Source: Candidatus Latescibacterota bacterium (GTDB lineage: Bacteria > Latescibacterota > UBA2968). Taken from it: a stretch of DNA of 64,000 bases. Shown piece by piece: positions 11,146 to 38,396 of the stretch. Below the pieces are notes generated by a model, which was not told the origin of the DNA, ran no database searches, and saw nothing but the letters and a program-made list of their open reading frames with translations. A program made the translations under genes and the position numbers. The stretch is from assembly GCA_965207885.1 (NCBI GenBank), contig OZ242311.1, forward strand, positions 3,904,001-3,968,000, in the 5' to 3' direction. Within the stretch, counting starts at the first letter, position 1. The number at the start of each line of letters is the position of its first letter.

Positions 11146-11190
11146 CGCAATCTCTCAAAAATGTAGGGGATTTCCCGCGCAATGTACCTC

Positions 11191-11231
11191 AAAAAGAAAG
11201 TGTGTGCAAGGTATCCATCCCCTGCACACAC
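11191..11231 (-). terminator. Rho-independent terminator after the PorV-like gene
   Basis: GTGTGTGCAGG...CCTTGCACACAC followed by TTTCTTTTT on the minus strand. Confidence 0.7.
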
Positions 11232-11276
11232 CGGTTGTGGTTCAGGATCTATCAGCGATCCACTCACAGACCGCTA

Positions 11277-12239: not shown

Positions 12240-12249
12240 GTCAGGCTCC

Positions 12250-14625
12250 TTATCTCAAAATGTAAAACGTCCCCGTCACCGTTTGCCCCATACTTTCGGG
12301 CGTCAGCGATTCAACGACGTAAAAATAAATCCCGCTGGCCACATCAGGCGAAGTCACATTGCGTTCAATTTGGAACCACGATGCTTCGCCAGAACTCGCA
12401 TCGTCGTGCAGGATTTCACCCACAATATCACCCGCCACATTGAAGATTAGCACGCGGCTTTTGGGAGGCAATCCCAGAAAGCGGATCTTTTTTGAACTCT
12501 GGTAATTATAAGCCGCTTCCGACAAACTGAACGGATTGGGCACCACGCGCACGCGCTTTTCCGGCCATGACGGTGCCAGACCCGGCTGAAACGGACTGAG
12601 GTCCAGGTTCACGCGCTGCTCGGGGGCAGAATATCCACCTTCGAGTCCAGCCTGTAAATGACCCTGCACTTCTTCGGGCAAATCGCCCATGCTCGACATG
12701 CCATTGCTCCATGAACTGCGCGGTTTGGCGAAAGCCCGCACATTGTAAAAGTACCGGAACCCGGCAACTGCCGTATTGTCGCGCCACACGTATTGACCGC
12801 CCGAATAGTCCCAGGTAGATCCGGAGGTACCTGCAGTGACAGTACCTACGTCTTCCCATGGACCAAATTCCTGATAGGCGGATCGGAACACGCGATATCC
12901 CACCACATCGGCATCGCCAAAATCGGGATGCACCGACGACTCAGCGGCATCATTCCACGTCAATGTAATCTCGGCATCCTGATTCACCCCAGGCGCAAAC
13001 TTCACATCGGGTGGATAATCGGGCAGATCGTACATATTGTCGTACGCAAATTGTGCGGCCTTCAAATGCGCCACAAGAGCAGCTTCTCCCTTGCTCAACC
13101 GCGCCAATCGTTCTTCTACGGGTAGTGGAATATCTTTCAAACAAAATGCCTGCACATCGATTGCATAAGCAGACTGGCCTTCGCGGGATATCGCCTGTGC
13201 GCCTGTCCCGGCGACATAAGCCACCACGATCTTGGCCTTCTCGCCCACAGCCAGATTATACGGCCCAAAAGTGAGTGCATTGGCCATCGCATTGACGGTG
13301 GTTGGATTGGCATCGGTTGTTCCCGAAAAAGTTTCGTAAATGCCCTGCTCGGAATCGCTCTGCAAATTCGGCAAATCCGTCCTCAACCCCCAGAAATCCC
13401 GCGTTTCCCACCACTTTGACGTCCTGGGTTGTTCGCCTACTGGATTGACGTATTTGCCCTGATCGTCGGCATTAAACACATGCGACGGCCCGCTATCGCG
13501 ATAGGCCAACGGTGCAACGCCCACGTACTGCGGCGATCTCATTTGCCCGTCAAACACACCGCCCGGCAGTCTTTTTGCATTGCCGTGTACGCTTTCAAGA
13601 TAAACGGGCTGCCCGGTATCCTCTTCAGCACGCTGGATACTGTCGCCATCCCACTGATAATTCATCTTCAAATCGACGTATTCAGCAGGTCCGTCGTAAT
13701 TCGGCGCACCCGTATAGCGGTATTGATCGTCTTGTGGCTGATACGATCCGGGCATGCCAGATCCGATGCTATTCCAATTGCCCTCGCCCGACATGCTCAC
13801 CGTAAAGCCCTGAACAAATGAGAAATACGCCCCCGTTAGATTATGTCCTGCACCGCCATTCACATCGGCCACACCATCGCCATCTGAATCACCCGTGTTC
13901 TCAAATTCCACTTCCAATATGAAGAAATCGTCAAACCCCTGATAACTCCAGGCCATGGCTTTGCGCGTGATCGTAACACCGTGTTTGGTCGTCCACCTGC
14001 TAAAAACGATATCTTCTGCGCGGTCATCCTTATCGGCGTCCATATACTGGCCCCACCGATGATTCAAGACTTCATAGGGCACGCCCGTTCTCGGCGCATC
14101 GGTTTGCAATGCAGCACCGGGATACCAGTTGGGCATAATTGCTCCCGCACCCAATCCATGGGGTGGTACTTCGACCTGGTATCCCCAGTTGGCTTCGGGA
14201 CTGTTGGCAATATCGTAATACATTGGCGCGATATCCGCCGAAGGCGTCCACGGTCCCGAATACGACACGCCGTATTCGCCGCCGACATTGGTCAACACCC
14301 ATATACCTTCCCCTCCCGACAAATTCTGTGCCTCATTTTTTTGTTCAGCCCAGCTAAAACCGTTCTTTTTGCCGAAATACTCAATATAGTCCGCACCCGC
14401 CATATTGAGCATAAGGCCATTGCCCATGCCCGGATACGTCAAGCGGGGCGCACCGCGAGAACTTCGGTCATCCCAGACACCGCCCTGAGTACCCTCATTG
14501 CGGAATCCGGTCCAGAGTTGTCCTCGGGTGAGTTGCCTCAAATTCTGCGTGTCCAAAGCATAGGCACCAAACGCCCATCCCAAAACTATCAGAATCAGGA
14601 CAGCAGCTTGAAATTTCCTGTTCAT
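12250..14625 (-). CDS. Secreted protein with FN3-like domain and T9SS/FlgD-like C-terminal domain
   Basis: Signal peptide, DSDGDG Ca-binding motif, GYRVFRS, C-terminal VRVVPNPF..IFNVAGDIV..VASGIYFY..FYILR. Confidence 0.75.
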   Translation of the reverse strand: MNRKFQAAVLILIVLGWAFGAYALDTQNLRQLTRGQLWTGFRNEGTQGGVWDDRSSRGAPRLTYPGMGNGLMLNMAGADYIEYFGKKNGFSWAEQKNEAQNLSGGEGIWVLTNVGGEYGVSYSGPWTPSADIAPMYYDIANSPEANWGYQVEVPPHGLGAGAIMPNWYPGAALQTDAPRTGVPYEVLNHRWGQYMDADKDDRAEDIVFSRWTTKHGVTITRKAMAWSYQGFDDFFILEVEFENTGDSDGDGVADVNGGAGHNLTGAYFSFVQGFTVSMSGEGNWNSIGSGMPGSYQPQDDQYRYTGAPNYDGPAEYVDLKMNYQWDGDSIQRAEEDTGQPVYLESVHGNAKRLPGGVFDGQMRSPQYVGVAPLAYRDSGPSHVFNADDQGKYVNPVGEQPRTSKWWETRDFWGLRTDLPNLQSDSEQGIYETFSGTTDANPTTVNAMANALTFGPYNLAVGEKAKIVVAYVAGTGAQAISREGQSAYAIDVQAFCLKDIPLPVEERLARLSKGEAALVAHLKAAQFAYDNMYDLPDYPPDVKFAPGVNQDAEITLTWNDAAESSVHPDFGDADVVGYRVFRSAYQEFGPWEDVGTVTAGTSGSTWDYSGGQYVWRDNTAVAGFRYFYNVRAFAKPRSSWSNGMSSMGDLPEEVQGHLQAGLEGGYSAPEQRVNLDLSPFQPGLAPSWPEKRVRVVPNPFSLSEAAYNYQSSKKIRFLGLPPKSRVLIFNVAGDIVGEILHDDASSGEASWFQIERNVTSPDVASGIYFYVVESLTPESMGQTVTGTFYILR

Positions 14626-14643
14626 ATCACTATCCTCCAATTC

Positions 14644-17600
14644 TCAAAACTGAATTTCCAGACCGATTTCCACTTCGCGCGGATGATACCTGTAGCGCGT
14701 GGCTTCTCTCGGGTCGCCATATAGCAAAAACTCGGTATCATCTGGCGGGGGTAGCCGCAACCCGTACTGTATATACGTGAAATCCGAATCTCGGCTCTCC
14801 GTACTCCTTTCATTGAACAAATTGCTCACCTCCAAAAATAGCGTGGGACGCAAATTGCCAATGGCTCGAAAATCTTTGGCCGCGTAAAGATCCGTCTTCA
14901 TCACCGTTGCTCCCGTGCGAAATTCGCGCGGGCCAATCGGGGGAACATACTCAAACGGCTCACCGCTGAAAATGCGGTAAATCATACTCACGCGCAGACC
15001 GCCAAATGGATTAATCGCGCCCATTTGGGGTCCATAAGCCATCGGCGTGGCATAATACAACTGAAGCGACAACTGATTCCTGCGCTGTCCGCCGGTAGGT
15101 TCTGCCGAAAAGACTTGCCCATTTGAAGCCGTCCATATCCCGTTATCATTGGTTTTGATGGGAGGCTGCCAGGGACCTGCACCTGGCCCCTGTGACCCGG
15201 CTTGCTCGGTCCAAGACACGATATTTGCCTCGGCTTTAGCGCTAATATCGGCCACTTGCTCAGATGTGAGCGGCACGGGCCTCTCCGAACCATCGGATTG
15301 CACTTCCCAATCGGTCCAGTAGTGTCCGCCCGAAATAAAATCGGCATCGGGAAGCACATACCAGTTCGCAGAGTGTTTGCCGTAGTGAACGCCACCCGGG
15401 TCGCGCACCCATTCGGCGTTGTAGGACAAATTGAACTGGAAATTATTGCTAAACGTCTTCTTCAGCGACAATTCAATCCCGCGCGCTGTCTGCCAGTAGG
15501 TATTGCGTATGGCGTTGACCTGTGAGGACTGGCCTCTGAGGGGATCTACCCAATAGGAAATGTTGTTTCTGGAGTACAATCCCTCATCGCGCCGATAGTG
15601 TGCCGTAATACTCGCCGTATAATCAGCCACAAAATTCCAATCCACCCCCATTTCCATACTCGTCGTGCGCTGGGGTTTCATGCCATCGGACGGCTGCCGC
15701 GCCGTGGTATGCACTTCCATAGCATTCCACTTTTCGGTCTCATCAATAATGCCGTTGCCATTGAGGTCATTGTCCGGCGCCTCACTCGAGAACTGTCTGC
15801 GATGGGTCTCGAGGAGCACGGGAAAGACATTCGCTCGACCAATGAAATAGTGCGCTGCCAGACGGTCTGTAATCGGGTGTGACAGGCCCACGCGAGGACT
15901 CAATGCCGTCATTGTTGGCTTCGAACTATCGAGGTGATCCATTTCATACCGCGCCCGCGTAAACGTGCTGTACATCGGCGATTTGCCCAGCGCCTCTCCC
16001 ATTGAGCCATTGCGCCCAAAATTGTAATAATCCCAGCGCAAACCCAGATTGGCGACCAGACCCCCGTACTCGATCTTGTCCTGCACGTACAGGTTCAGCG
16101 TCCACGGTTTCACATTTTTGCCCAGTTCAAAACCATCTGCCACAAACTCGAGAAAACGACTCTTGGTATTGTCAAAATCTTCTCGCGTGCGGTGATATAA
16201 CCGTTGTGTGAGCACCAATCCCGTCTGAATCAAGTGCGACCGATTGACCTGACTCACAAAATCGTATTTGATGCCGTATCTCGTATCTTCCTCTTCGGTG
16301 TATTCGCGCAACAGCGTGGGCAAATTGAAAAACCCCGCCTTATCTTTGCGCACGGCTTCGGTGGCATCCGGCACATCGAACGCATCACGGTCGTATTTGT
16401 TGTAGAAAAATTTCAGGTCGTAATACGTGTTTTCGCCCAATGTATGTGTCAGCGTCAATACCTGGAGCTGCCGCGACAAGGTGTAAGTTCCCGAAGCTGA
16501 AAAATCCTCGGGAAAGAAAATATTTTGTGCATTATTGCGCGTCGATCCCTGAAATCGATCTGACCGTTGATACATACCCAGTGCTTTAACCTTGATATCT
16601 GCACCGGGCCGATACGTCAATGTCGCCTGCATGCGCGGTGGATCGTCCGATACCTGTTCAGCCGCCGGGAACCTGGCCGGACTGCGGGCATAACTCACAC
16701 TGGCAAAATACGAAAAATCGCGTGAGAGCGGACCGCCCAATGTACCTTCCAGGCGGTGTCCACGCTTGTCCGTATAATCGACGCGTTCGTGCGCCATACG
16801 CTCGACATCGTCAGACGTTCCCAGCGTGCGATCTGGTCCTGGATCCATATACGTTTCATTCACCCAATCGGGATTGTCCCATTGCACATTGTCTTCAAAT
16901 CCGGGACTTTCATAAACATCTCGACCCCAGTGCTTTTTGCCCGCAGGTGTGAACTTATACTCCACCCGACCGGAGAAATTGCCTCGACCTTCTTTTGTCA
17001 CCAGACTCACAATACCCGCCCCCGCATTGCCAAATTCTGCATTCATACCGCCGGTTAGCACACTCAATTCCTGAATAGCCGTGGTATTTACGCCCGTAAG
17101 CATGCTCCGATCAACTTCAATCCCATCGATATAATAGCCCACCTGCGTACCCGTTTGCACCTGCGTTGAACTTCCGCGAATGCGGTTGGTGCCATCCAGC
17201 GCCATACCCGGTTGCAACGCGATCAATTGCGATGTCGATCTCACCTGCGGCACAGCCTGAATATCTGCCGCGGAAACCACGTATTTGCTCGTGGTTTTAT
17301 CTGGCTCCACAGGCGGGCGCTCCGCCACGACAACCAGCTCGGCCAATTCCAGACTGGCTTCTTTCAGTGCAAAATCCACCGTGGATGTATAATCCACAAT
17401 CACCTGCACCGCTTCTTTCTTTTCCGTGCCATAGCCCACCATCGTCGCCGTAAGGGTGTACATGCCGGGATCTACAGCCAGAATTAAATAGCGGCCCTCG
17501 GCATCGGTAGTCGCTCCTTTGCGGGTCCCTTCGAGCGTCACATTAGCGCCCGGTAAGGACTCACCTGTAGCGGCATCTGTGATGACACCCGTAATTTTTC

Positions 17601-17670
17601 CCGCTGTTGTCGCCATGGCCGATGTACCCATCAGCAACAACAAAATAAATCCCAATATTAACTGCTTCAT
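14644..17670 (-). CDS. TonB-dependent receptor with carboxypeptidase-regulatory-like N-domain
   Basis: GKITGVITDAATGESLPGANV, plug GGMNAEFG, YVQDKIE, SPRVG, terminal Phe. Confidence 0.9.
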   Translation of the reverse strand: MKQLILGFILLLLMGTSAMATTAGKITGVITDAATGESLPGANVTLEGTRKGATTDAEGRYLILAVDPGMYTLTATMVGYGTEKKEAVQVIVDYTSTVDFALKEASLELAELVVVAERPPVEPDKTTSKYVVSAADIQAVPQVRSTSQLIALQPGMALDGTNRIRGSSTQVQTGTQVGYYIDGIEVDRSMLTGVNTTAIQELSVLTGGMNAEFGNAGAGIVSLVTKEGRGNFSGRVEYKFTPAGKKHWGRDVYESPGFEDNVQWDNPDWVNETYMDPGPDRTLGTSDDVERMAHERVDYTDKRGHRLEGTLGGPLSRDFSYFASVSYARSPARFPAAEQVSDDPPRMQATLTYRPGADIKVKALGMYQRSDRFQGSTRNNAQNIFFPEDFSASGTYTLSRQLQVLTLTHTLGENTYYDLKFFYNKYDRDAFDVPDATEAVRKDKAGFFNLPTLLREYTEEEDTRYGIKYDFVSQVNRSHLIQTGLVLTQRLYHRTREDFDNTKSRFLEFVADGFELGKNVKPWTLNLYVQDKIEYGGLVANLGLRWDYYNFGRNGSMGEALGKSPMYSTFTRARYEMDHLDSSKPTMTALSPRVGLSHPITDRLAAHYFIGRANVFPVLLETHRRQFSSEAPDNDLNGNGIIDETEKWNAMEVHTTARQPSDGMKPQRTTSMEMGVDWNFVADYTASITAHYRRDEGLYSRNNISYWVDPLRGQSSQVNAIRNTYWQTARGIELSLKKTFSNNFQFNLSYNAEWVRDPGGVHYGKHSANWYVLPDADFISGGHYWTDWEVQSDGSERPVPLTSEQVADISAKAEANIVSWTEQAGSQGPGAGPWQPPIKTNDNGIWTASNGQVFSAEPTGGQRRNQLSLQLYYATPMAYGPQMGAINPFGGLRVSMIYRIFSGEPFEYVPPIGPREFRTGATVMKTDLYAAKDFRAIGNLRPTLFLEVSNLFNERSTESRDSDFTYIQYGLRLPPPDDTEFLLYGDPREATRYRYHPREVEIGLEIQF

Positions 17671-19475: not shown

Positions 19476-19730
19476 AATAAATCTCCTTTCAGATATTTAA
19501 TTAAAACTTAAAGAACCAATTTATAGAATTTTCTATATTTAATAAATAAAATTTATTACAGGCCTTCATTAAAAAAGACAATAGGGTTCCAAAAGATTCC
19601 ACTCGCATTTTACCTTTTACAACTTTCACCTTGTCCGCCTGCCGTAAATAGCTTATAAATGATAACGCGATGTGCTGCTTTGTGTTTTTTTGTAATACAA
19701 ACATATGTTTCTAATAGAGATGAAACCTTT

Positions 19731-20828
19731 ATGTCTTTGACAGAATCTGCGGACTTACGAACCAGAAGTGCTAATCGACCCGTTATGAATAGACCTGATG
19801 AGCTACCGCCATTTCCCGAGGGGTGGTATTTCGTCGCAAGCCGCGAGTCCATTCTGCGAGAGAAACTGATCGAGAAAACGTGGCTGGGCGAGGAAATCGT
19901 CGCCTGGTGCGACGAGTCAGGCCGTGTCTGCGTGGCCGACGCGGTATGTCCGCACCTGGGCTCGCACCTGGGGCCGGAGGTCGGTGGGAAGATATGCAAT
20001 GGTCGCCTCGTCTGTCCTTTTCACGGATTTGAGTACGATACGACCGGTCAATGCGTTGCGACTCCGAATGCCCCGGCACCCAGAGTTGCGAGACTGAAAG
20101 TATATGAGACGCGAGAGAGCCTCGGCATGGTCTTCGCCTGGTTCGGGAGCGGCGGCCGGCCGCCGCAGTGGGACCTTCCAAACGAGCCAACCACTGGACA
20201 AGAGTGGTGTGAACTGGGATTCAACATACTCCGGTTCCGTGGACATCCCCAGGAAACAACCGAGAATTCCGTGGATCTGGGACATCTGCGCTACGTGCAT
20301 GGTTACGACAATGTGAATCCAGTCGGTTCGGTAACGGTAGATGGTGCCTATTTGAAGAGTTGCTTTGACTTCAAACGCGTTCGCAAAATCCTGGGTGTAA
20401 AGGACCTCGTGTACGAACCCTCGGCCATCACCCACGTCTATGGACTGGGCTACTCCTTCGTCGAAATCCACGAGAAAACTATCGATATGAATGCGAGATT
20501 GTGGGTGCTCGCAACGCCCATTGATGGCACCCTCATCGATCTTGCATTGGTCAGCCAGGCGCGAGAAATCCGCAAGCCCAGGCGATTCATCTCAGGCCTG
20601 GGGTTTCTGCCGATGAAGCTGCGCCACAGGCTGATGAATCGCATTTTGTTGTCACAACAAAAACGGGATGTCCTGCAGGATGTGGTGATCTGGGAACGGA
20701 AACGGTATCGGCCTACCCCCAGGTTGTGCCGCGCCGACGGCCCCATAGGGAAGTACCGCCGGTATTGCCGGCAGTTCTATCCGGATCCGACAATTGCGAC
20801 GGGAAGTGGAGACTCGATCTCCGATTAG
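19731..20828 (+). CDS. Rieske non-heme iron oxygenase, cholesterol 7-desaturase (DAF-36/Neverland)/KshA-like
   Basis: PPFPEGWY, CPHLG..CPFHG, ENSVDLGHLRYVH, C-terminal DVVIWERK..DGPIGKYRRYCRQFY. Confidence 0.85.
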   Translation: MSLTESADLRTRSANRPVMNRPDELPPFPEGWYFVASRESILREKLIEKTWLGEEIVAWCDESGRVCVADAVCPHLGSHLGPEVGGKICNGRLVCPFHGFEYDTTGQCVATPNAPAPRVARLKVYETRESLGMVFAWFGSGGRPPQWDLPNEPTTGQEWCELGFNILRFRGHPQETTENSVDLGHLRYVHGYDNVNPVGSVTVDGAYLKSCFDFKRVRKILGVKDLVYEPSAITHVYGLGYSFVEIHEKTIDMNARLWVLATPIDGTLIDLALVSQAREIRKPRRFISGLGFLPMKLRHRLMNRILLSQQKRDVLQDVVIWERKRYRPTPRLCRADGPIGKYRRYCRQFYPDPTIATGSGDSISD

Positions 20829-20919
20829 GCGGCAGCCGATGAGGGCGCATCATGTACGGCTGGCGGTTCAGGAAGGCACCCTGACTTGAGGGGCCCGCGC
20901 GAAGGCGCGCCAGGCGGGC

Positions 20920-21954
20920 CTAAAGAGGCTTGCGAGCCAAGAAACAGTACAGCGGCGTAAAGATACCCGCCTTGCCGCCCGCGATATAAGCCTCCGCGGT
21001 CCGATCCAGAAGTCGGATGACTTCCGCGGAGCCCTTCGGAAAGAGCCGCAGTACTTCAGCCAGCTTCGATCCTGTGATGACCGCTTTACGGCCCCACGGA
21101 AGCCTGCGCAAGGCGTTTCCGACCGTCCCATGGCGACTCTCCATGGGTTGATACCAAGGTGTGGAGGGTCCTTCCTGGATCGCCCGGTCCATCCCTTCCA
21201 TGACTTGGAATCCCGCGGCTCCGAGCGCGTGATCCACTTCCCCGAAGGTGGCGATGTCCTTCAGCGCAATGCCGCGCATGAGATCCTCCTTGATGGCCCG
21301 ATGCCGGTCATCCTTCGGATCGAACTTGCCCGTCAGACACATTTCCTGCCCCCAGAACAGGGCACCGGGTTTCAGCACGCGGAATACCTCCTCGAAGGCG
21401 CGTTGCTTGTCCGGTGCATGGCACGTTGACTCTATGGCATAACCCCGGTCGAAGGTATCGTCCTCAATGGTGCTCATGTCCATGAAGCTGCACGTCTCGA
21501 AATCGACCATGTGATCAAGCCCCGCCTCGGCGTTCAACCTCTTCGCCTCTTCCAACTGGATCTCATTGATGTTGATTCCTACAACCCTGACACCAGCCTC
21601 ACGGACGACGCGGCGCATGGGGGCGCCGACTCCACAACCAACGTCGACCACCGTCATACCCTGTTGCAATTCCAACTTGGAAATCATCAGCCGCTGATGC
21701 CGGACCTTGGACTCCTCCAGACTCTCATGAGGCGTGAGGGGCGCGAAGTGCAGGGACTGGCCCCAGCCCCACACCATGAACCCGCTACAAAGGTCGTAAT
21801 AGTCTTTCACCGTTTCCGTGTGATCGTACCCGCCCGCGCCACCGGGCTCCAGTACCGCCCGGTCGAGCCAGCCGTCGAAGTGCTGCACTCGACGTGCGAC
21901 GCCCGATCCCCGGTACGCATCTCTCAGTTCTCTTGACAGTTTGCACAGCCGCAT
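20920..21954 (-). CDS. Sterol C24-methyltransferase (SMT/ERG6-like)
   Basis: YYDL..GWGQSLHFAP, DVGCGVGAP, YAIESTCHAP, EVFRVLKPG, GIFTPLYCFLARKP. Confidence 0.9.
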   Translation of the reverse strand: MRLCKLSRELRDAYRGSGVARRVQHFDGWLDRAVLEPGGAGGYDHTETVKDYYDLCSGFMVWGWGQSLHFAPLTPHESLEESKVRHQRLMISKLELQQGMTVVDVGCGVGAPMRRVVREAGVRVVGININEIQLEEAKRLNAEAGLDHMVDFETCSFMDMSTIEDDTFDRGYAIESTCHAPDKQRAFEEVFRVLKPGALFWGQEMCLTGKFDPKDDRHRAIKEDLMRGIALKDIATFGEVDHALGAAGFQVMEGMDRAIQEGPSTPWYQPMESRHGTVGNALRRLPWGRKAVITGSKLAEVLRLFPKGSAEVIRLLDRTAEAYIAGGKAGIFTPLYCFLARKPL

Positions 21955-21996
21955 TTCGTGGTGTTTTCCCCCCTGGCTCTACAAGGAGCCAAGTCG

Positions 21997-24030
21997 TCAG
22001 GTGAACAGCTCCCGTCTCTGCTGGGAGATGTGGAACTTCAGCTTCTTGCTCGGTTTCAGCGACGGGAACGGACTGAAACGGAGCTTGTGCTTGTACTTCG
22101 CCGGCGACACCTCAATAGTGAAGTAGTGCGCCAGCATCAGCAAGTTGGCCGCCAGGTGCAGCTCCATCCACCGGGTGCCGAGACACTTGTGCGTGCCCAG
22201 CCCGTACGGGGCGTACCCGGGGCTTCGGTGTTCATGGCGCAACGGCAGGTAGCGGTCGATGTCGAACTTGTAGGGGTCGGGAAAGACCTCGCTCATGTAA
22301 TGCGTGGCGGTCATGGCGATGTGGATCCGTTCCCCCATGGGCAGCTCGTAGTCCTCGACCACGCACGTATTCATCACGTTCCGAATGGACATGGAGACGA
22401 TCGGGTACATGCGCATGCACTCCATGAGGAAGCGGTGGGTAACGTCAATGTTGGCGGGGGTGAAATCCTCTCTCTCGGGGTCTCCCTTGGCGAACAGGGC
22501 ATCTGCTTCGGCCTGAATTCTGGCGTAGAGGTCGGGCTGCGACGCCATGGCATAGACTACGAGGCTGAACGTATCGCCGAGGTACACGCTGGCAATCAAG
22601 GCCGCGGAAAAGGAGAACAGAAGGTTGGACTCCGGGAGAAACTGCGGGTCGCTCGCGTGCAGGCTGAGATAATCGTCCACCAGGTCCCGCGGGCTGTCCA
22701 CTCGTTGGGCGGGGGTATGGATGTCCTGGACCCGCTGCATCAGTGTGTCCAGGGCTTTCGCCCGGCGTCTCATGCCCGGGGTGTTCAGCGTGAATCTGGG
22801 CAAGAGCTTGGCGACGTGCACGCTGAGGGCCCGTTCCTTGTACGCCATCAGGTCGTCCATGAGGTCCTGGGTATCGACGCCGATGAACAGTGGGGAGAGC
22901 TGGGCGTTCACCATCTCCCGGCACATGGATGTGGCGCGGTATGAGTCCCCAACCGTCAAGCTCGCCATGTACTTGCGCCCCTGATTGTAGAGCTGGTCTA
23001 GCTGCCCTCCCAGCCTCACGGCAGAATAGGCGGGCGACAGGGACTGGCGAAGCCGGAAGTGATCGGCTCCGTCCAGGGCGGGCAGGACGCCGGACGCGCC
23101 GTAGACCTTCTCGAAGTCGCTGAAGTAGTCCCTGGCTCTCAGGTACATGCGCCCGCGCTTGTGCACCCAGCGGTTTGTCTCGAGTCCGGCCAGGAAGATC
23201 ATGGGCTTCGAGAAGGGAGGGCGAATCTGGAACACCGGACCGTACTCCTCCGCAAGGTTCCCGAAGAGCGCGTTCAGGTTGCCGTCTCGACTATGCGGGT
23301 TCAGCAGCAGCTTGGGCAGCGAAACCGTCGGAATTTTCCTGGCAAGGGCAGGACGTCGAAGGGCTGGGCCGGCGAGGTTCTGAGAGACCGCAGAGGCCAG
23401 GGAGCGGCCGATCAGATCCATCTTGCAGATGAACTCGATGCGCTCCTCCGCCTCGTCGTCGAGCTGGAATATGAAACGAAAGACGTCGCAGGTATTGACG
23501 AGGCAGATAATGATGACATCTCTCGGATCGGGAATCTCGTCGGTGAAGATGACCCTGCTGATCCGCGTTTTTATGAACTGGCCTGCAGTGCCCTCTTCCG
23601 ACTTGCTGGACAGTTCCCCACGCCAGACGGTAGGAGCCAGTGTCCAGAATTCACCGTCGTGATATTCCAGGATCTTCAGGTCAACCAGGCGGTCCAGAAC
23701 CGAATCAATGATCGACTCCGCACGGGGAGCGAGCCGTTCGATCCAGTACTGGGCGTTCCGTTGAACAGATTCGGCTGCGATTTCTTTCAGAATGGGGTCC
23801 AGGGTAGGTCTCCCCGTTTCCGACTCGTCCACGAGGAACAGGGATTCCAGGTCCGTGTCGATGCGCGATCTGAGTGAAAGCTCCGCGAGCACGGCACCGA
23901 CCACGGCGCAGTTCAAATGCCAGCCGGGTACCTGGTGAAAGTAGCCAGTCTCCTCGTTGAGGAGCATCAGGATGAGCTCTTCGGTGAGACTTAGCGATTG
24001 GGGCGTCAAACCCTCGGTAGTATTAGCCAT
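21997..24030 (-). CDS. GPP34 (GOLPH3/Vps74-like) domain fused to cytochrome P450
   Basis: N-terminal LSLTEELILMLL..GAVLAELSL..RI; C-terminal ECMR (ExxR), FDIDRY, YGLGTHKCLG heme motif; GGAGG RBS before ATG at 24030. Confidence 0.85.
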   Translation of the reverse strand: MANTTEGLTPQSLSLTEELILMLLNEETGYFHQVPGWHLNCAVVGAVLAELSLRSRIDTDLESLFLVDESETGRPTLDPILKEIAAESVQRNAQYWIERLAPRAESIIDSVLDRLVDLKILEYHDGEFWTLAPTVWRGELSSKSEEGTAGQFIKTRISRVIFTDEIPDPRDVIIICLVNTCDVFRFIFQLDDEAEERIEFICKMDLIGRSLASAVSQNLAGPALRRPALARKIPTVSLPKLLLNPHSRDGNLNALFGNLAEEYGPVFQIRPPFSKPMIFLAGLETNRWVHKRGRMYLRARDYFSDFEKVYGASGVLPALDGADHFRLRQSLSPAYSAVRLGGQLDQLYNQGRKYMASLTVGDSYRATSMCREMVNAQLSPLFIGVDTQDLMDDLMAYKERALSVHVAKLLPRFTLNTPGMRRRAKALDTLMQRVQDIHTPAQRVDSPRDLVDDYLSLHASDPQFLPESNLLFSFSAALIASVYLGDTFSLVVYAMASQPDLYARIQAEADALFAKGDPEREDFTPANIDVTHRFLMECMRMYPIVSMSIRNVMNTCVVEDYELPMGERIHIAMTATHYMSEVFPDPYKFDIDRYLPLRHEHRSPGYAPYGLGTHKCLGTRWMELHLAANLLMLAHYFTIEVSPAKYKHKLRFSPFPSLKPSKKLKFHISQQRRELFT

Positions 24031-24061
24031 CGGTTTCTGCCTCCCTGCATCATAAAGTGCA

Positions 24062-27000
24062 TTACCCGGTACCGGCGCCGGAACGGCCCCGCGAAGCAAT
24101 CAGACGCAGATGGATGGTGTAAAGTGCGGGAACGACCATCATGAGTATAGCCGTAGTAAAGAGAATGCCGCAACCGAGCGAGGCGGCAAAGGGGATCAGG
24201 AACTGGGCTTGGATGGCACGTTCCAGAATAAGGGGAGTGAAGCCGAGGAACGTAGTCACGGAAGTGAGCATGATCGGACGAAAGCGCCCCTTGGCGCCCT
24301 CCACGATCGCCGTCCTTGCCAAGGCGCCTTCCCCGATTCTCTGATCGATGAAATCGATCATGACCAGGGAATCGTTCACGACCACCCCACTCAGGCCGAA
24401 GATACCCATGAAAGATACGGCACTCAGGGCTACTCCCAGGACCCAGTGACCCAGGATCACTCCGATGAACCCGAAGGGGATGACGGCCATGATGATGAAC
24501 GGCTTTGTATAGGATCGGAGGGGGATGGCGAGCAGCGCGAAGATCAGGAGCAGGGCAATCGCAAATCCGCGATACAGCGCATCCAGGGATTCGAGCTGCT
24601 GTTGTTGTTCCCCTCCGAAGCTGTATGTCAGGTCTGGGTGCAGGGCGGTCAGATCCGCGAGGATCGAATTGGTCAGGATGTCGTTGGCTTCGTCGCCTGA
24701 AATCACCGAAGCATCCACGTCCGCAGTGACCGTGACGACGCGCTGGCCGTCCTTCCGTCGAATGGCCGGCGGCGACACCCCTGGGTTCAGGGAGGCCACA
24801 CTCATGACCGGGACCTCGGCCCCGCCCGGCGTACGGAGCAGGTATCCTTCGACATCGGTGATGGATTTTCGTTCATCGGAGGGCAGGCGCACATAGACCC
24901 GGACCTCTTCCCGGTCGCGCTGCACCCGAACGGCCTCTGCGCCGAAGAACGCCGCCCGTGCCTGCCCGGCCAGGTCGTGGAGTGTGAGACCGAGGGTTCG
25001 CGCTTCCGGCCGCAGCTCCAGTTGAACTTCCGGGATGCCCGGGGAGTGGTCCGAACGTATGTCATAGACGCCTCCCACCCCACGGAGTCCATCGACCACG
25101 GAGTCTGCAATCCGGGCAAGGCGCTCCGGGTCCGGATGCGACAACACGGCCTCCACCGGGTTGCCCAAGTCGAAGACCTCGCCGCTGAAGGTGATGCCGC
25201 GTACGTAGGGCAGCACCCCCACCTCCTCCCGCCATGCCTGCACGACCTCTCCGGTGGAGATTTCTCTCTGTTGGGCACCCAGGAGTTTGAACTCAATGGT
25301 GGCGATGTTGGCTTGCGGATTGAGGGTCGGCTCCGGATTGAGCCCGCCCGCGAGTCTCGAGCCCTGTCCGACGGTCACCGTTACGCCGGTCAGCAGCGGT
25401 GGTGCATCCCCGGGCCGCCCGCGCGAGAGTCGTTCGATGACCCGGTGGCCTGCGGCCTCCAGTTCCTGCGCCACTTCGTACGTCCTCGGAGCGGTCGCCC
25501 CATCGGGCATCTCCAGGACGACCGTCGCGATATCCCCTTCCACGTCAGCGGCCAGCGTGGTAGGAACGATCCCCGCGGGCAACAGGGAGATGCTCAGCAC
25601 GAGCATTCCCACAGCCCCCGACATCGTCACCGCGGGCTGGTCGGTGGCAAACTGCAGGGCCCGATCCAGCGGGCCCTGGACGAACCTGTTCAGCAGCGCG
25701 TCAACGCGCCCCTGGAGCCGCGCGAAGAACCGGTCGAAGGCATTGGCCGGCACCCACTCCGGACCGTGCAGGTGGGACAGGTGGTTGGGCAGCACGAACA
25801 GCGATTCGACCAGGGAAACCAGCAGCATGGCGATCATGATGATCGGCAGGGCCCGCCACACCTCACCGACGCCGCCGGGAATGAACAGCAACGGGACGAA
25901 GGCCACCACCGACGTCAGAACTGCGAACGTCAACGGCACCTTGATCCGTCGTACGCCGCGGATCGCGGCCGTGACCCCGGGTGTTCCCCGCTTGCGTTCG
26001 TATTGAATGTGCTCGGCCACGACGATGGCATCGTCGACGATGATTCCTATGGCGAGGACAAAGGAGAACAGGCTGATGGTGTTGATCGCCACGTCGAATG
26101 CCATCATGATGGCGAGGGCACCGATTCCCGAAACGGTGAGGCCCACGGCGACCCAAAGCGCGAGCCGGATTTCGAGAAACAGGCTGAGTGCGATCAGCAC
26201 CAGCAACAGGCCCAGGATCCCGTTCTTGAGGAGAAGATCGGCGCGTTCCTCATAGACCTGGGATTCGTCATTCCACATGGTGACGCCCACACCGTCGGGT
26301 AGGGAAGGGATCACTTCGTTTGCCAGGTGCTGTCGGACGGTCGTGGCGACATCCATCACTTGCTCACCAGCGGCGCGGTAGATCTCCACGAATACCCCGG
26401 GATGGTTCTGGTGCCGGATGATCAGGTCTGCTTCCTGAAAACCGTCGCGAACCTCGGCGATATCTCCAAGGCGCAGGACCGTGCCGTCACGTCCGCTGAG
26501 AAGGACGATCTCCTCGAAGTCCTGTTGGTCGTAGTTCTGGCCGAGGGTGCGGACCCGCACCTGGGATTCCCGGGTATTGATACTGCCGGCAGATAAGTCC
26601 AGGGAACTGCGACGAATGGTGTTGGCTATGTCGGTGAGTGTGAGTCCAAGTGCTCTTAGCCGATGAAGCGGTACCTCGATAGAGATCTCGTATTTCCGAA
26701 TACCACTGACTTCGACCTGGGACACGGAGGGAAGTGTTGTGAGTTCATCTTCGATCTGGTACGCCAATTCTTTCAGCGAGCGCTCAGGTACATCGCCATA
26801 TACAATGAGCCGCATCATGCTCATGCGGTTGGTCATCTCCCTGAAACTGGGACGATCGGCACCGGCCGGGAAAGACTGTATGCGATTGACCGCAGACTCG
26901 ATATCGTTCAGCGCCTGGACCATATCCGTACCGAAATCCATTTGAATCCGTACGGATGCCATACCCGGGGCCGATACGGACTTGACCGCCTTCACGTCAT

Positions 27001-27256
27001 CCAACCCGCTGACCTGGTCTTCGATCTTGACGACGATCGACTCCTCGATCTCCTCCGGTGTGGCGCCGGGATAGGCCATCGACACTTCGATATGGTAGAA
27101 AGGGGTGGTCGGCCACGCTTCCCGGTCGAGTCCGGTCAGCGACACCAGCCCGGCGGCGATAATGGCCCACATCAGTAGATTGGCGGCTATACTGTTACCA
27201 GCCATATAAGCTATGGGACCACGCTGTTCCCGTGCGGAACCTTCTTCCCGGTTCAT
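24062..27256 (-). CDS. RND efflux permease (AcrB/D/F family)
   Basis: GIIVDDAIVVAE, GVVVNDSLV, RFRPIMLTSVTT; 1064 aa. Confidence 0.95.
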   Translation of the reverse strand: MNREEGSAREQRGPIAYMAGNSIAANLLMWAIIAAGLVSLTGLDREAWPTTPFYHIEVSMAYPGATPEEIEESIVVKIEDQVSGLDDVKAVKSVSAPGMASVRIQMDFGTDMVQALNDIESAVNRIQSFPAGADRPSFREMTNRMSMMRLIVYGDVPERSLKELAYQIEDELTTLPSVSQVEVSGIRKYEISIEVPLHRLRALGLTLTDIANTIRRSSLDLSAGSINTRESQVRVRTLGQNYDQQDFEEIVLLSGRDGTVLRLGDIAEVRDGFQEADLIIRHQNHPGVFVEIYRAAGEQVMDVATTVRQHLANEVIPSLPDGVGVTMWNDESQVYEERADLLLKNGILGLLLVLIALSLFLEIRLALWVAVGLTVSGIGALAIMMAFDVAINTISLFSFVLAIGIIVDDAIVVAEHIQYERKRGTPGVTAAIRGVRRIKVPLTFAVLTSVVAFVPLLFIPGGVGEVWRALPIIMIAMLLVSLVESLFVLPNHLSHLHGPEWVPANAFDRFFARLQGRVDALLNRFVQGPLDRALQFATDQPAVTMSGAVGMLVLSISLLPAGIVPTTLAADVEGDIATVVLEMPDGATAPRTYEVAQELEAAGHRVIERLSRGRPGDAPPLLTGVTVTVGQGSRLAGGLNPEPTLNPQANIATIEFKLLGAQQREISTGEVVQAWREEVGVLPYVRGITFSGEVFDLGNPVEAVLSHPDPERLARIADSVVDGLRGVGGVYDIRSDHSPGIPEVQLELRPEARTLGLTLHDLAGQARAAFFGAEAVRVQRDREEVRVYVRLPSDERKSITDVEGYLLRTPGGAEVPVMSVASLNPGVSPPAIRRKDGQRVVTVTADVDASVISGDEANDILTNSILADLTALHPDLTYSFGGEQQQQLESLDALYRGFAIALLLIFALLAIPLRSYTKPFIIMAVIPFGFIGVILGHWVLGVALSAVSFMGIFGLSGVVVNDSLVMIDFIDQRIGEGALARTAIVEGAKGRFRPIMLTSVTTFLGFTPLILERAIQAQFLIPFAASLGCGILFTTAILMMVVPALYTIHLRLIASRGRSGAGTG

Positions 27257-28449
27257 GGATCACCTCCGATCCGCACCACCCTGCCTTCGGTTGCGACCTT
27301 TATCCCGCCTATGACGACCGCCTGACCGGCTTTCAGCGTGCCGGTTACGAACACCTTATCATCGGAACGCTGAAGGACGCGCACTGGGACGATGGTCAAT
27401 AGTGTGTCATCGCGCACTGCCCAGACCTCGTTGCCCGGTCTGAGTGCTGATCGCCGCAGGATGAAGTACTGGTCTGGGATGATTCCCTCAATTCGCACTT
27501 CTGCGAATTTGCCCACGAGAAGGGGCGGGCCAAGATCTGCGCCTGCCCCTTCGACTCGGGTGCCGCTTGTAAAAGGATTCGGGACGCGTACGATGACGTT
27601 GATGGTGCGCGTCTGTTCGTCCAGGGATGCCTCTGCTCGATCTACATAGCCCTCCCAGGCATAGCTCCCGTCGCCGTATTCAGCGATGACACGAGCCTTG
27701 ACCCGCCTATCTCCGTCGCCCGCTTCCAGCCCCCAAAGGCCGGGAATAAGGGCCGCATTGGCATCGGAGAGGGGAACTACCACCTCTACTGCGTCGGTCG
27801 CGTAAAGTCGCCCCACGCTCTGACCGGCTACCACGAACTGCCCCACATCTATCGATTCTGTCTGCACGACACCTCTGAAAGGCGCGCGGACTTTTGTGCG
27901 TGCCAGAGCCAACTCGGCGTCAGCGAGCACAGCACTATCTCTGGCCACCGAGGCGCGGGCTGCCTCGAGTTGAGGCTCCCACAGCGCAAGGGGATTGGCT
28001 TTGGCTATATCCGTTTGGTCACGTCTGAACTGCGCGTACTCAGCGCGTGCGATCTGGGCTTCTTCATTCGCCCTGAGGAGTGCGACATGCTGCGCGGCCA
28101 CGTTGGCACGCGCCTGCTGAACTCTGTTGAGGTAGTCGGCATCATTAATGCGGAAGAGAACCTGCCCTTTTCTGACTCGTCCGCCACTCTGAAACGCCGG
28201 ATCTACCCAAACAACCTTACCATTGATTTCAGCGGCAACATCTATCTCTGCGACGGGCCGAACCGTTCCGGCCCCGTACACGGGAATTGCACCAGCACCG
28301 ATCGCCGCCGGAGCCGTGACTGCGAAAGGCGCCCGGGAAGTAAGAGGCCGGACTTCCTGCTCAGGCTTCAGCCAGACCATAAAGTAGGCAACCGTCAAGG
28401 ATATGAGAAGGATGGCACCTGCCACAAGTAAGCTTCTTCCGCGATTCAT
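27253..28449 (-). CDS. RND periplasmic adaptor (membrane fusion protein)
   Basis: N-terminal TM helix, GTVRP..AEING.V, VRAPF.G lipoyl-like halves. Confidence 0.9.
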   Translation of the reverse strand: MNRGRSLLVAGAILLISLTVAYFMVWLKPEQEVRPLTSRAPFAVTAPAAIGAGAIPVYGAGTVRPVAEIDVAAEINGKVVWVDPAFQSGGRVRKGQVLFRINDADYLNRVQQARANVAAQHVALLRANEEAQIARAEYAQFRRDQTDIAKANPLALWEPQLEAARASVARDSAVLADAELALARTKVRAPFRGVVQTESIDVGQFVVAGQSVGRLYATDAVEVVVPLSDANAALIPGLWGLEAGDGDRRVKARVIAEYGDGSYAWEGYVDRAEASLDEQTRTINVIVRVPNPFTSGTRVEGAGADLGPPLLVGKFAEVRIEGIIPDQYFILRRSALRPGNEVWAVRDDTLLTIVPVRVLQRSDDKVFVTGTLKAGQAVVIGGIKVATEGRVVRIGGDP

Positions 28450-28525
28450 CTCTCTTCTCTTTTCATTAAAGTCCGATAATCACCCGGGGTAACGCCTCTC
28501 TTCCCTACGCCGAGTTCTAACGCTG

Positions 28526-29641
28526 TCAACAGAAGATTTCGTCTCCAATATCTATTTGCGGCAACACCGCACACAACACCTTCGCAAAAGCTTGCCGCTC
28601 GGCGGATAGCCCCACGGTCACGCGAATGCAGCGGTCGAGCGGATCCACGCCTGGCATCCGCACGAAGACCCCGTGCTGCAAAAGCATCTGCATCAGCCGC
28701 CGCGCTCGCTCGCCACTACCCACGTCGAGGGCCACAAAATTAGTCGCCGAAGGCACCGTTTGCAGCCCCAATTCCGCCGCCAGCACCGCGTATTCCCGTC
28801 GGCCTTCCTCTACTTGCCGCACCACCGAGCGCACGAACGCATCGTCGCCCAGCGAAGCAAGTGCCCCAGCTTGGGCGATGCGATTGACGCCAAAGTGATT
28901 GCGCACCTTGTCGAGCGCGGCCACCACATCGCGGTGTGCCAGCGCGTAGCCGACCCTGGCCCCAGCCATGCCGTGCGCCTTGGAAAACGTCCGCAACCGC
29001 ACCACCTGTGCCCGTTCCACTTCCAGCGGCAACAGGGCATCCTCCGGCGCGAAGTCGATATACGCCTCGTCGAGCAGCAACACACAATCCGGCGGCAACC
29101 CCACGATAAAATCCCGCAACTCGTCGGCTCGCTGATAGGTGCCCATGGGGTTGTCGGGATTGGCCACGTAGATCAGCTTGGGGCGCACTTGCCGCGCCTT
29201 GTCCAACAGGGCCGGCAAGTCCTCTCGATCCGCGCGATAGGGCACCTTGTGCAACACCGCCCCGTGCCCCTCGACGTGGTAGTTAAACGTGGGATAGGCC
29301 CCCAGCGACGTCACCACCGCGTCGCCCGGCTCGGCAAAAAGGCGCACCAAAAGCCCCAACAGTTCGTCAATCCCCGCACCCAAGACGACCTCTTCCTGCG
29401 CCACCCCGTGCCGCACCGCCAACGCCGAGCGCAGCTCGTATCCCTCTGGATCGTTGTACCAATGCACTTGCTCCACCGCCTCTACCATGGCCTGCCGCGC
29501 ACGCGGCGAGATACCAAAATTGCTCTCATTAGCACCAACTCGCAGGGCGAGCGGCTGCCCTTGCTCCCGCTCCAATGCCTCGGGCGGCACAAAGGGAACG
29601 GTCGCTGGCAGGGCGCGGACGATGTGCGTAAACGGCAACAC
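28526..29641 (-). CDS. PLP-dependent class I/II aminotransferase (HisC-like)
   Basis: GANES, NPDNPMG, DEAY, RTFSKAHGMAGARVGY. Confidence 0.9.
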   Translation of the reverse strand: MLPFTHIVRALPATVPFVPPEALEREQGQPLALRVGANESNFGISPRARQAMVEAVEQVHWYNDPEGYELRSALAVRHGVAQEEVVLGAGIDELLGLLVRLFAEPGDAVVTSLGAYPTFNYHVEGHGAVLHKVPYRADREDLPALLDKARQVRPKLIYVANPDNPMGTYQRADELRDFIVGLPPDCVLLLDEAYIDFAPEDALLPLEVERAQVVRLRTFSKAHGMAGARVGYALAHRDVVAALDKVRNHFGVNRIAQAGALASLGDDAFVRSVVRQVEEGRREYAVLAAELGLQTVPSATNFVALDVGSGERARRLMQMLLQHGVFVRMPGVDPLDRCIRVTVGLSAERQAFAKVLCAVLPQIDIGDEIFC

Positions 29642-29644
29642 GGG

Positions 29645-30463
29645 TTAAGACCACACGTAGATTTCGTCGTCGTCTTCGGCATAGCCAATGAAGACGGCGA
29701 GCACCACCCGCGGATCGTCCCCCTGTACCGCAGGGACCTCGTGGATGCAGCGCGTATTGAAGAAATACAAATCGCCCGGCTCGAGCGCGACCTCGCAGTG
29801 CGCCACGCCATGCGCGGCCGCATATTCGTGAAAACGGCCCTCGGCGATATACGGCTGTATCTCCTTGGTCCACAGACAGCGATGCAACACAGCCTGCACC
29901 CCAGGTCCTGCGGAATCCGCGTTCTGTACGCACAGCACACCGGCAAATTGGTGGGTAAAGCGCGTCACCTCGTAGTTGAACCGCTTTTCGCGCAGAACGA
30001 CGTGGTCGATGTGCGGACTATAGGCGTGGGTCTCGTAGTGGATGCGAAAGATGGCCGGGCCGTACAAGCACCCGTCGCGCTCGCGCGCCGTCTTAACCTC
30101 CTTATTGGAAGCCAACGCCTGCAAGTGCCTATAGAGCAGTTGCACCGGGTCGAGCAAACCCGCAAAAAGGGTAGCAAAAAGCGCTTGCGTCTCCTCCGCA
30201 TCTGCCAAGAACGCCTCTTGGTCGCCGCCCAAGTTGCCGAGGCTGGTGCCAATGTCGATGCGCGTGCGCTCGTCGCCCGCAGCGCGCAGCAACCCGCGCT
30301 CGGCAAAGCGTTCCATCAGCCGCTGGCAATCGGCTGGCGTACAGACCTGGGGCAACAGAATCGCCGGTATCTCCGCCCGAGCCAAGGCGCCGAGCGGATC
30401 GGCGCACGCGTCCGGCCCCACGGGCCGCCAAGCGGCTCTTGTGTGACCCTGTGGATACTTCAA
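29645..30463 (-). CDS. Fe(II)/2OG dioxygenase-like protein
   Basis: PHID, PGDLYFFN..IHEV..R. Confidence 0.7.
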   Translation of the reverse strand: MKYPQGHTRAAWRPVGPDACADPLGALARAEIPAILLPQVCTPADCQRLMERFAERGLLRAAGDERTRIDIGTSLGNLGGDQEAFLADAEETQALFATLFAGLLDPVQLLYRHLQALASNKEVKTARERDGCLYGPAIFRIHYETHAYSPHIDHVVLREKRFNYEVTRFTHQFAGVLCVQNADSAGPGVQAVLHRCLWTKEIQPYIAEGRFHEYAAAHGVAHCEVALEPGDLYFFNTRCIHEVPAVQGDDPRVVLAVFIGYAEDDDEIYVWS

Positions 30464-32749: not shown

Positions 32750-32765
32750 CGCAAAACCTCCCGTT

Positions 32766-34073: not shown

Positions 34074-34190
34074 GATGTAATCCTCCTTAAAAACTGCATT
34101 ACAGTATGCATTGTTCTTGACGACAACGCCCTACTACCCGATTATTATAGAACGAACTTGCTTTATCAGTCAATCTCTCTGGAGCTTTCA

Positions 34191-35093: not shown

Positions 35094-35098
35094 AACCC

Positions 35099-38392: not shown

Positions 38393-38396
38393 TAGA

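Follow-up and report, generated by a model that had tools for sequence, protein, structure and literature searches.

The 64,000-nt stretch of DNA analysed here (the window; positions 3,904,001 to 3,968,000 of contig OZ242311.1, from the Candidatus Latescibacterota bacterium assembly GCA_965207885.1) encodes a protein of 677 amino acids (aa) in which an N-terminal GPP34 domain, related to GOLPH3 and Vps74, is fused to a complete cytochrome P450. The I-helix of the P450 has lost the acid-alcohol pair, with a tyrosine now at the position of the threonine. The gene is part of a cassette of ~8.8 kb, shared between phyla, that also encodes a relative of sterol methyltransferases (SMT), a Rieske oxygenase resembling KshA, and a resistance-nodulation-division (RND) efflux pump with its adaptor (Table 1). 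On balance we lean towards the view that the fusion acts in the cytoplasm, where it would use non-standard heme chemistry to tailor sterols or sterol-like lipids of exogenous origin, within a mobile cassette for tailoring and export.

The protein is a genuine fusion of GPP34 with a complete P450. In a Pfam search both domains score far above their cut-offs, i.e. 101.6 bits against 29.1 for GPP34 (PF05719, aa 15-216, E 7.7e-29) and 115.6 bits against 22.8 for p450 (PF00067, aa 423-664, E 3.3e-33). The latter match is confined to profile positions 211-458, which is the C-terminal half; PF00067 is matched by all 46 of the aligned fusions. An AlphaFold2 model for which 46 family members served as input (predicted local distance difference test, pLDDT, 89.1; predicted template-modelling score, pTM, 0.85) has aa ~230 to 677 folded as a complete P450, and Foldseek comparison with PDB gave target-normalised template-modelling (TM) scores of about 0.8 to CYP184A1, Methylococcus CYP51, CYP3A4, BM3 and CYP120A1. 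The heme thiolate ligand is Cys616 in the loop YGLGTHKCLG, and the ExxR motif (E537 and R540) and the C-helix His/Arg motif are, like Cys616, invariant across the aligned fusions. Searching PDB with the N-domain as a single sequence returned only Vps74 (E 0.08-0.14), while a profile of 12 N-domains matched GOLPH3 (3kn1) at E 1.1e-8 and Vps74 at E ~2e-7. Pfam, the model, Foldseek and the N-domain profile together uphold the original prediction for this DNA of a GPP34-like N-domain of ~210 aa and a complete P450 in one open reading frame (ORF). The reverse-strand ORF starts at a TTG and runs for 700 codons (21997-24099). The fusion has 372 matching proteins at E 1e-30 or better. We take the ATG at 24030 as the start, and thus the gene as 21997-24030, because the 120 listed homologues (664-686 aa) all span 97-100% of the 677-aa form. 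Neither a signal peptide nor a transmembrane segment was found in that form, and there is no Lys or Arg among its first 30 residues.

The I-helix reads ASVYLGDT rather than AGx(D/E)T. A HMMER alignment to Methylococcus CYP51 pairs ASVYLG-DT with AGHHTSSGT, so that Y483 and L484 stand where the acid and the alcohol would be. In a MAFFT alignment of the 46 fusions most sequences read AG(L/I)(D/E)T, including a second fusion encoded in the same genome (AGLDT); the group that includes the window protein reads A-(S/A/G)-x-gap-(Y/N) and is one residue shorter, the window protein itself having A-S-V-gap-Y. D486 and T487 fall 2-4 residues past the acid-alcohol position in both alignments. Counting back 16 residues from the proline of QPD leads to Y483, and the canonical fusions of the alignment have the same spacing. 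The same 16-residue spacing to the helix-end proline is found in P450cam and BM3. On these alignments the acid-alcohol pair was lost through a one-residue deletion, and Tyr483 stands at the Thr position.

D486-T487 was considered as a shifted acid-alcohol pair and rejected, with T varying (to A, M or G) while D and Y are fixed, and with both alignments placing the pair upstream. The stretch AALIASVYLGD is fixed among orthologues and the following residue is variable. Of 120 close homologues, 112 have T at residue 487, 6 have M and 2 have A; for the 80 loci described below the counts are 29 for T, 33 for A, 7 for M and 2 for G, the remaining 9 being outside the extraction pattern. Because T487 varies among orthologues, D-T is not a conserved catalytic pair. 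The lack of an AGx(D/E)T pair, noted in the original prediction, is agreed by the CYP51 alignment, the alignment of 46 fusions and the tree described below; no D-T was seen at the canonical position of the I-helix, which had been named as an outcome that would count against it. We infer that the heme chemistry may depart from the ordinary Thr/acid-assisted activation of O2. CYP74, CYP8A1/CYP5A1, CYP152, EryF and CYP7/CYP8B are P450s that likewise have neither the conserved Thr nor the acid. The window P450 differs from these in its one-residue deletion and conserved Tyr, together with a canonical heme-ligand loop.

A tree was calculated from 59 P450 domains, i.e. the 46 fusions and 13 standalone relatives, by an IQ-TREE quick search with the I-helix columns kept and with support from the Shimodaira-Hasegawa-like approximate likelihood ratio test (SH-aLRT). 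The 14 rows of the deletion type form one clade (SH-aLRT 100; stem of 0.83 changes per column), which branches from within the canonical fusions. The standalone relatives are canonical in 12 of 13 cases; the exception, P0221, lies inside the deletion clade. At the Thr position some 11-12 of the 14 rows of the clade have Tyr (the window protein, P0020, P0049, P0075, P0093, P0118, P0122, P0126, P0127, P0128 and P0131), while P0139 and P0155 have Asn and the standalone P0221 has Arg. By this tree the deletion/Tyr state is derived and of single origin, with fast change followed by constraint. Comparison with eleven orthologues gave ratios of nonsynonymous to synonymous substitution (dN/dS) of 0.10-0.26 overall, the two domains being alike (0.09-0.25 for the P450 domain). 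Both domains of the fusion are under purifying selection.

Table 1. Features of the fusion gene and its cassette in window coordinates.
Feature	Position	Strand	Basis or remark
GPP34-P450 fusion gene	21997..24030	-	677 aa from ATG at 24030; stop codon 21997-21999
GPP34 (GOLPH3/Vps74-like) domain	23383..23988	-	aa 15-216; Pfam PF05719, profile against PDB
Cytochrome P450 domain	22000..23343	-	~aa 230-677; Pfam, AlphaFold2 model, Foldseek, PDB sequence match
I-helix	22543..22632	-	aa 467-496; DSSP on the AlphaFold2 model
Atypical motif ASVYLGDT (A480-T487)	22570..22593	-	Y483 aligned at the Thr position; one residue deleted relative to AGx(D/E)T
Cys616, heme thiolate ligand in YGLGTHKCLG	22183..22185	-	invariant in 46/46 aligned fusions
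SMT relative, 344 aa, CMAS + Sterol_MT_C	20920..21954	-	42 nt downstream of the fusion
KshA-like Rieske oxygenase (Pfam Rieske + KshA_C)	19659..20828	+	divergent to the fusion
RND inner-membrane efflux permease, 1064 aa	24062..27256	-	Pfam ACR_tran E 2.4e-159, NCBIfam; ends 31 nt upstream of the fusion
RND periplasmic adaptor (membrane-fusion protein, MFP)	27253..28449	-	Pfam, NCBIfam; 4-nt overlap with the RND gene
Shared cassette extent	19720..28480		blastn against 11 of 80 loci; composition

The neighbours of the fusion gene were followed by tblastn with the window proteins in 80 fusion-centred loci, one genome per species. The fusion is found in all 80, the SMT relative in 70 (67 of these at a minimum of 69% identity), the Rieske protein in 68, the RND permease in 41 and the MFP in 36. 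By contrast, an aminotransferase, a WelO5-like oxygenase, a GH4 protein, a TIM-barrel protein and an outer-membrane protein (OMP) of the window were each found by tblastn in 0/80 of these loci. ORF clustering of the same loci adds a FAD amine-oxidase-like protein in 37, an MMPL transporter with a sterol-sensing domain in 28, an outer-membrane factor in 25, an LppX/LprAFG-type lipoprotein (LppX_LprAFG) in 12 and an ERG4/ERG24 sterol reductase (ERG4_ERG24) in 11. When metagenome loci were instead centred on the SMT gene, a GPP34-P450 gene was present in 27 of the 42 that have at least 3 kb on both sides. The best solved relative of the Rieske protein is KshA (PDB 4qdc, E 1.2e-23); homology of its gene to other cassettes starts near 19720, and translation may in fact begin at an ATG near 19721.

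The linkage to the SMT gene follows the type of I-helix. Among the listed fusions less than 70% identical to that of the window, those lying at most 6 kb from an SMT gene are all of the Tyr deletion type, including ones that are 40-47% identical to the window fusion. Four such rows are not of the deletion type (one AGIET, two QALDP and one AGQ-HTS), and for these the SMT gene is more than 6 kb away or there is none nearby. Over the whole set of 126 fusions no canonical-class member comes as close as 6 kb to an SMT gene, and 11 that do come as close fall into the 'other' class of the search pattern; half of the loci behind this tally were picked via the SMT gene, so that the rate is biased. Ten canonical-type fusions in relatives of the window genome, which are kin and not independent samples, have within 8 kb an SMT gene in 0/10, a KshA-like Rieske gene in 0/10 and a sulfotransferase gene in 7/10.

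The original prediction that no ferredoxin or reductase is encoded nearby is confirmed by Pfam for the long ORFs between 17.7 and 31.9 kb, where no such domain occurs. The genome has 7 matches to Fer2, 0 to Fer4_15 and 23 to Pyr_redox_2, and none of them is inside the window.

The cassette has moved horizontally between phyla. By their record labels the 80 loci come from nine named phyla (8 loci are unlabelled), and the fusion orthologues across these nine are full length and 70-99% identical; the nearest named relatives of the window fusion are in metagenome-assembled genomes of Latescibacterota. The synonymous divergence (dS) of the window copy from those of Nitrospirota and Chloroflexota is 0.64-0.78, far below saturation. 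In blastn comparisons with 11 of the 80 loci homology is confined to 19720-28480, even for loci that are 97-99% identical inside, and it is at these same two positions that homology with other Latescibacterota loci ends. The G+C content of the cassette is 0.59-0.635, against ~0.47-0.54 in its flanks and most of the window. A search of the borders for terminal repeats, an integrase or a tRNA found only short repeats of a chance-like kind; the left border is an AT-rich spacer.

The transporter varies with the phylum. In Chloroflexota the MMPL transporter is present in 27 of 31 loci and the RND pump in 0/31. An MMPL protein with a sterol-sensing domain replaces the tripartite RND pump in the Chloroflexota cassettes (L050, L061, L064 and others; e.g. 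L061:13119-20535), which often add an MFS transporter, an LppX/LprAFG-type lipoprotein and a FAD amine-oxidase-like gene. Exchange of RND for MMPL in this phylum agrees with an envelope that has a single membrane.

The SMT, fusion, RND and MFP genes have matches of at least 95% identity among the contigs of four RNA libraries, which come from two studies and carry the label sponge metagenome or metagenome. Two of these contigs bridge the junction between the SMT and fusion genes (21908-22130 and 21511-22037). In the four runs there is no cover over 19659-20540 of the Rieske gene, on the absence or level of which the contigs are uninformative. Contigs of one study (X17, X18) skip 75 nt in the RND gene (window 24301-24377), which would be an in-frame difference of 25 codons in a related strain, and in one contig 63 nt of the spacer between the Rieske and SMT genes (window 20824-20888) are replaced by 4 letters. 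The sequencing runs that contain at least half of the cassette words are labelled sponge metagenome, marine metagenome or with coded organisms, and near-identical DNA is found mainly in sponge and marine runs.

The window genome is a single contig of 6.23 Mb, 97% complete. SQHop_cyclase_C and SQHop_cyclase_N have no match in the whole genome, where the control gave matches in 2 and 1 genomes respectively. Because no squalene or oxidosqualene cyclase match is found in the genome, the substrate, if it is a sterol, would not be made by this cell. Sterol_MT_C and KshA_C have one match each genome-wide, both in the cassette. A search of the genome with ERG4_ERG24 gave no match, and the control was likewise without a match everywhere.

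There are three P450s in the genome, and two of them are GPP34 fusions. The second fusion (L008:10348-12309; 653 aa) has the canonical AGLDT I-helix and a full-length Pfam p450 match. Its gene overlaps the start of a sulfotransferase gene (12234-13457) and follows a PhyH dioxygenase gene (9263-10207), the region as a whole being L008:9263-13457 (G000:C1 about 5691262-5695456). The association of canonical fusions with sulfotransferases suggests a separate lipid module that hydroxylates and then sulfates. A standalone GPP34 protein of 223 aa is also encoded (L009:8020-8691, G000:C1:4663040-4663741; Pfam E 3.4e-45). It adjoins ThuA-like and nitroreductase genes, with no P450, and the whole-genome match to it ran through two TGA codons.

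At the junction of the two domains, canonical members of the family keep a stretch, IPxxxGLPxLGN, that resembles the Pro-rich hinge of microsomal P450s. The GPP34 domain could dock the enzyme on a membrane or lipid, or handle lipid, in the place of the N-terminal anchor of a microsomal P450. Targeting to phosphatidylinositol 4-phosphate (PI4P) in the manner of GOLPH3 or Vps74, on which the original prediction had drawn, is doubtful. According to the text of Wood et al. 2009 (PMC2806290), the PI4P pocket comprises W81, R90, R171 and R174 of GOLPH3 (W88, R97, K178 and R181 of Vps74), the need for which was shown by mutation. In the profile alignment these GOLPH3 residues, as given in that text, fall on P35, V44, E105 and I108 of the fusion. 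W37 and R103 are two residues off pocket positions, and at this low identity the alignment may be shifted at one residue of each pair; the equivalents of R90 and R174 are hydrophobic throughout the aligned orthologues. As far as the alignment can tell, the pocket of GOLPH3 is not conserved in the fusion.

Other parts of the window were annotated. Directly upstream of the cassette, 28526-30463 encodes a class I/II aminotransferase (NF006014, 508 bits for a cut-off of 510) and a WelO5-like 2-oxoglutarate/Fe(II) oxygenase that has no NCBIfam match, and here the G+C content is still high (0.61). The region 31961-43866 contains three sulfatases, four PhyH-family dioxygenases and GFO/IDH/MocA oxidoreductases, together with a homocysteine S-methyltransferase-like protein, a DAO oxidoreductase and a Sulfotransfer_5 protein, and looks like a block that processes sulfated substrates. 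Within 9169-17670 a DUF6785/DUF6784 membrane protein stands beside two long ORFs with no Pfam match (11277-12239 and 12250-14640), and these are followed by a 1008-aa protein with CarboxypepD_reg and TonB Plug domains. At 609-5309 there is HsdR (the R subunit of a type I restriction system, 981 aa) and then an AAA_22 ATPase with a weak BrxC/BrxD match.

Fusions of this kind are already known from sequence. The main text of a 2025 study (Microbiome 2025;13:4; PMC11706023) describes, by comparative genomics only, a class named GPP34_L, i.e. GPP34 with cytochrome P450, that makes up 656 of 663 long GPP34 proteins and is reported there as exclusive to sponge symbionts. The same text gives GPP34 expression in 45 of 107 Aplysina aerophoba genomes and proposes that GPP34 proteins are secreted effectors that bind PI4P. 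By domain order and length the window protein is a member of GPP34_L, and its relatives are in Latescibacterota, Gemmatimonadota (Ca. Palauibacter), Chloroflexota and others that appear in Table 1 of PMC11706023. The architecture is therefore not new; prior characterisation of the fusion had been named as counting against the original prediction, and that main text describes the class by sequence and not by biochemistry. GPP34_L is treated there as one class, with no account of sterols, methyltransferases, the I-helix or pocket residues, whereas here we distinguish a canonical group associated with sulfotransferase from a Tyr clade associated with the SMT relative, Rieske oxygenase and pump.

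CYP51 is the best solved relative of the P450 domain by sequence (E 4.8e-17) and ranks among the best by fold, with a target-normalised TM-score of 0.82-0.83, and the Methylococcus capsulatus CYP51-ferredoxin (PDB 6mcw, 7jj1 and 7snm) is, like the window protein, a bacterial P450 fusion, in that case of a sterol P450. The differences are that identity to CYP51 is ~20%, that its AGHHTS aligns to ASVYLG, and that it has a C-terminal ferredoxin where the window protein has an N-terminal GPP34. Identification of the fusion as a CYP51 was rejected on the ~20% identity, the absence of the CYP51 His-Thr I-helix signature and the absence of an NCBIfam equivalog match. With GOLPH3 and Vps74 (PDB 3kn1, 9qpq and 2zih) there is homology over ~200 residues and a predicted helical domain with a β-hairpin at aa 121-131; unlike them, the domain lacks conservation of W81, R90, R171 and R174, is in a bacterial host and is fused to an enzyme.

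SMTs of sponge symbionts methylate sterols in vitro and cluster with sdmA and sdmB, according to the text of Brown et al. 2023 (PMC10070321). The window cassette resembles the clusters in that paper and in a preprint (10.64898/2025.12.19.695621), as their main texts present them, in having a gene of the SMT family with Sterol_MT_C beside oxidative enzymes in symbiont DNA. Relatives of the window SMT are also on contigs with the prefixes that the preprint text gives for Aplysina aerophoba and Sarcotragus foetidus metagenomes. The window cassette differs in that neither an oxidosqualene cyclase nor an sdmA or sdmB orthologue was found for it, and P450 occurs 0 times in the main texts of PMC10070321 and the preprint. 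None of the assayed SMT contigs (e.g. JGIcombinedJ30088_10000835, LXNI01006544 and LXNI01016685) turned up in the 80 loci that were retained out of 90 relatives of the window SMT. Our literature search found no paper that ties a GPP34-P450 fusion to sterols. What is new here is that the Tyr I-helix defines one derived clade, the contrast of this clade with canonical paralogues, and the cyclase-free host genome.

In the reading that we prefer, the cassette consists of the Rieske oxygenase, the SMT relative, the GPP34-P450 as central enzyme, the RND pump and the adaptor. It would take up a sterol or sterol-like lipid made outside the bacterium, the cell not making the lipid itself since no cyclase is found in its genome. 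The lipid would then be oxidised by the P450 and the Rieske oxygenase and C-methylated, perhaps in that order, and the modified product exported by the pump of the cassette. The original prediction of a P450 that acts on sterols is thereby supported in part: the gene context favours it (Sterol_MT_C and the KshA-like Rieske oxygenase, and elsewhere ERG4/ERG24 and transporters with sterol-sensing domains).

Several observations weigh against this reading. The absence of cyclases is that of two Pfam models in one genome, and linkage to the SMT gene is not absolute, 10 of the 80 loci being without it (some of these have incomplete ends). The RND pump matches only generic multidrug models of NCBIfam. 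Contigs from RNA libraries are not proof of transcription or of a single transcript, as DNA may be present. Identification of the Rieske protein as SdmA was rejected, since it scores 30.8 bits with NF052579 for a cut-off of 600 and is nearer to KshA. Lastly, the text of preprint 10.64898/2025.12.19.695621 gives Region I, GWGxxFHF, and Region II, DxGxGxxGP, as conserved in all functional SMTs, and the window protein has GWGQSLHF and DVGCGVGAP. Against the residues given in that text, F89 becomes L and G132 becomes A (yeast numbering), while G84, W85, H90, F91, D125, G127, G129 and P133, which are retained by all of the SMTs tested there, are kept. The SMT relative may accordingly act on another substrate or position, or may be inactive.

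These same two SMT residues, a Rieske protein that is not SdmA and a pump matching multidrug models would be explained if the cassette tailors or detoxifies a hydrophobic compound that is not a sterol (another terpenoid, a hopanoid-like lipid, or a metabolite of the host or its diet) and pumps it out. The P450 is also only ~20% identical to CYP51, and the genome appears to make no cyclic triterpenoid. We nevertheless think a non-sterol substrate unlikely, as Sterol_MT_C, KshA_C, ERG4_ERG24 and MMPL proteins with sterol-sensing domains recur around the fusion in different phyla, and sponge tissue is rich in unusual sterols. A variant of our preferred reading would have the P450 independent of redox partners, employing a peroxide, hydroperoxide or endoperoxide (e.g. 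an oxidised sterol) in place of O2 and electrons and rearranging or cleaving the substrate, in the manner of CYP74 allene oxide synthases, prostacyclin and thromboxane synthases and CYP152 peroxygenases. These families too are without the acid-alcohol pair, which disappeared from the fusion through a deletion now fixed in a clade with a long stem; there is moreover no ferredoxin or reductase in the cassette or window, and the cassette crosses phyla as a self-contained unit with no partner gene. Yet the missing partner gene says little, for the Rieske oxygenase likewise needs an unlinked reductase, and the canonical-type paralogues also have no linked partner. In addition there is nothing unusual about the Cys-ligand loop, ExxR or the C-helix H/R motif, all of which are invariant, and several O2-dependent sterol P450s work without Thr, so that we attach little weight to this variant. 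Loss of the catalytic pair, the long stem branch and an N-terminal half that has diverged too far for Pfam, whose match is limited to profile positions 211-458, might even indicate that the P450 domain is no longer an oxygenase and uses its heme for lipid binding, sensing or chaperoning, passing the substrate to the methyltransferase or the pump. This is highly improbable given that C616, ExxR and the heme-contact motifs are invariant, that the replacing Tyr is itself conserved in the clade, and that dN/dS of the P450 domain (0.09-0.25) is that of a constrained enzyme.

The published proposal is of a different kind, namely that the protein leaves the bacterium, binds PI4P of the host phagosome and blocks its maturation, the P450 being an accessory. 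The GPP34 homology is real, near-identical DNA comes mainly from sponge and marine metagenome runs, and the main text of PMC11706023 reports the family only from sponge symbionts and as expressed there. Set against this, the four PI4P-pocket residues align to P35, V44, E105 and I108, the protein has neither a signal peptide nor any Lys or Arg in its first 30 residues, and a heme-thiolate enzyme requires loading of its cofactor in the cytoplasm. The gene also lies on the same strand between that of an RND pump (31 nt) and that of an SMT relative that uses S-adenosylmethionine (42 nt), in a unit conserved across phyla; gene context is not weighed in the main text of PMC11706023, where the words sterol and methyltransferase occur 0 times. 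A secreted effector therefore seems to us very unlikely. Beyond our preferred reading of an enzyme tailoring exogenous sterols, a bolder form of it is a tentative and rather doubtful possibility. The Tyr-type clade would then be a new functional class of P450 that acts on host-derived sterols at the bacterial membrane, by chemistry that bypasses the normal proton relay, in concert with the divergent SMT and the KshA-like oxygenase; the chemistry could be, for example, rearrangement or cleavage of a sterol peroxide, or an unusual desaturation. The cassette would make part of the unusual sterol repertoire of the sponge and export it to the host, and GPP34 would be a lipid- or membrane-docking module and not a PI4P effector.

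Few published gene signatures of sponge symbiosis are as strong as the GPP34-P450 proteins, and the only role that has been proposed for them is that of a secreted phagosome effector. The gene context points instead to lipid chemistry inside the bacterium. The derived I-helix is a natural and widely conserved variant of a P450, the mechanism of which can be compared with that of a canonical paralogue from the same genome. If the cassette modifies host sterols, three subjects would converge, i.e. the sponge-specific GPP34_L proteins, the bacterial SMTs in sponge metagenomes, and the debate on whether sponge sterane biomarkers can be bacterial. Should the Tyr-type clade indeed be a new class, symbionts, and not sponges alone, would shape the sterol profiles that are used as animal biomarkers.

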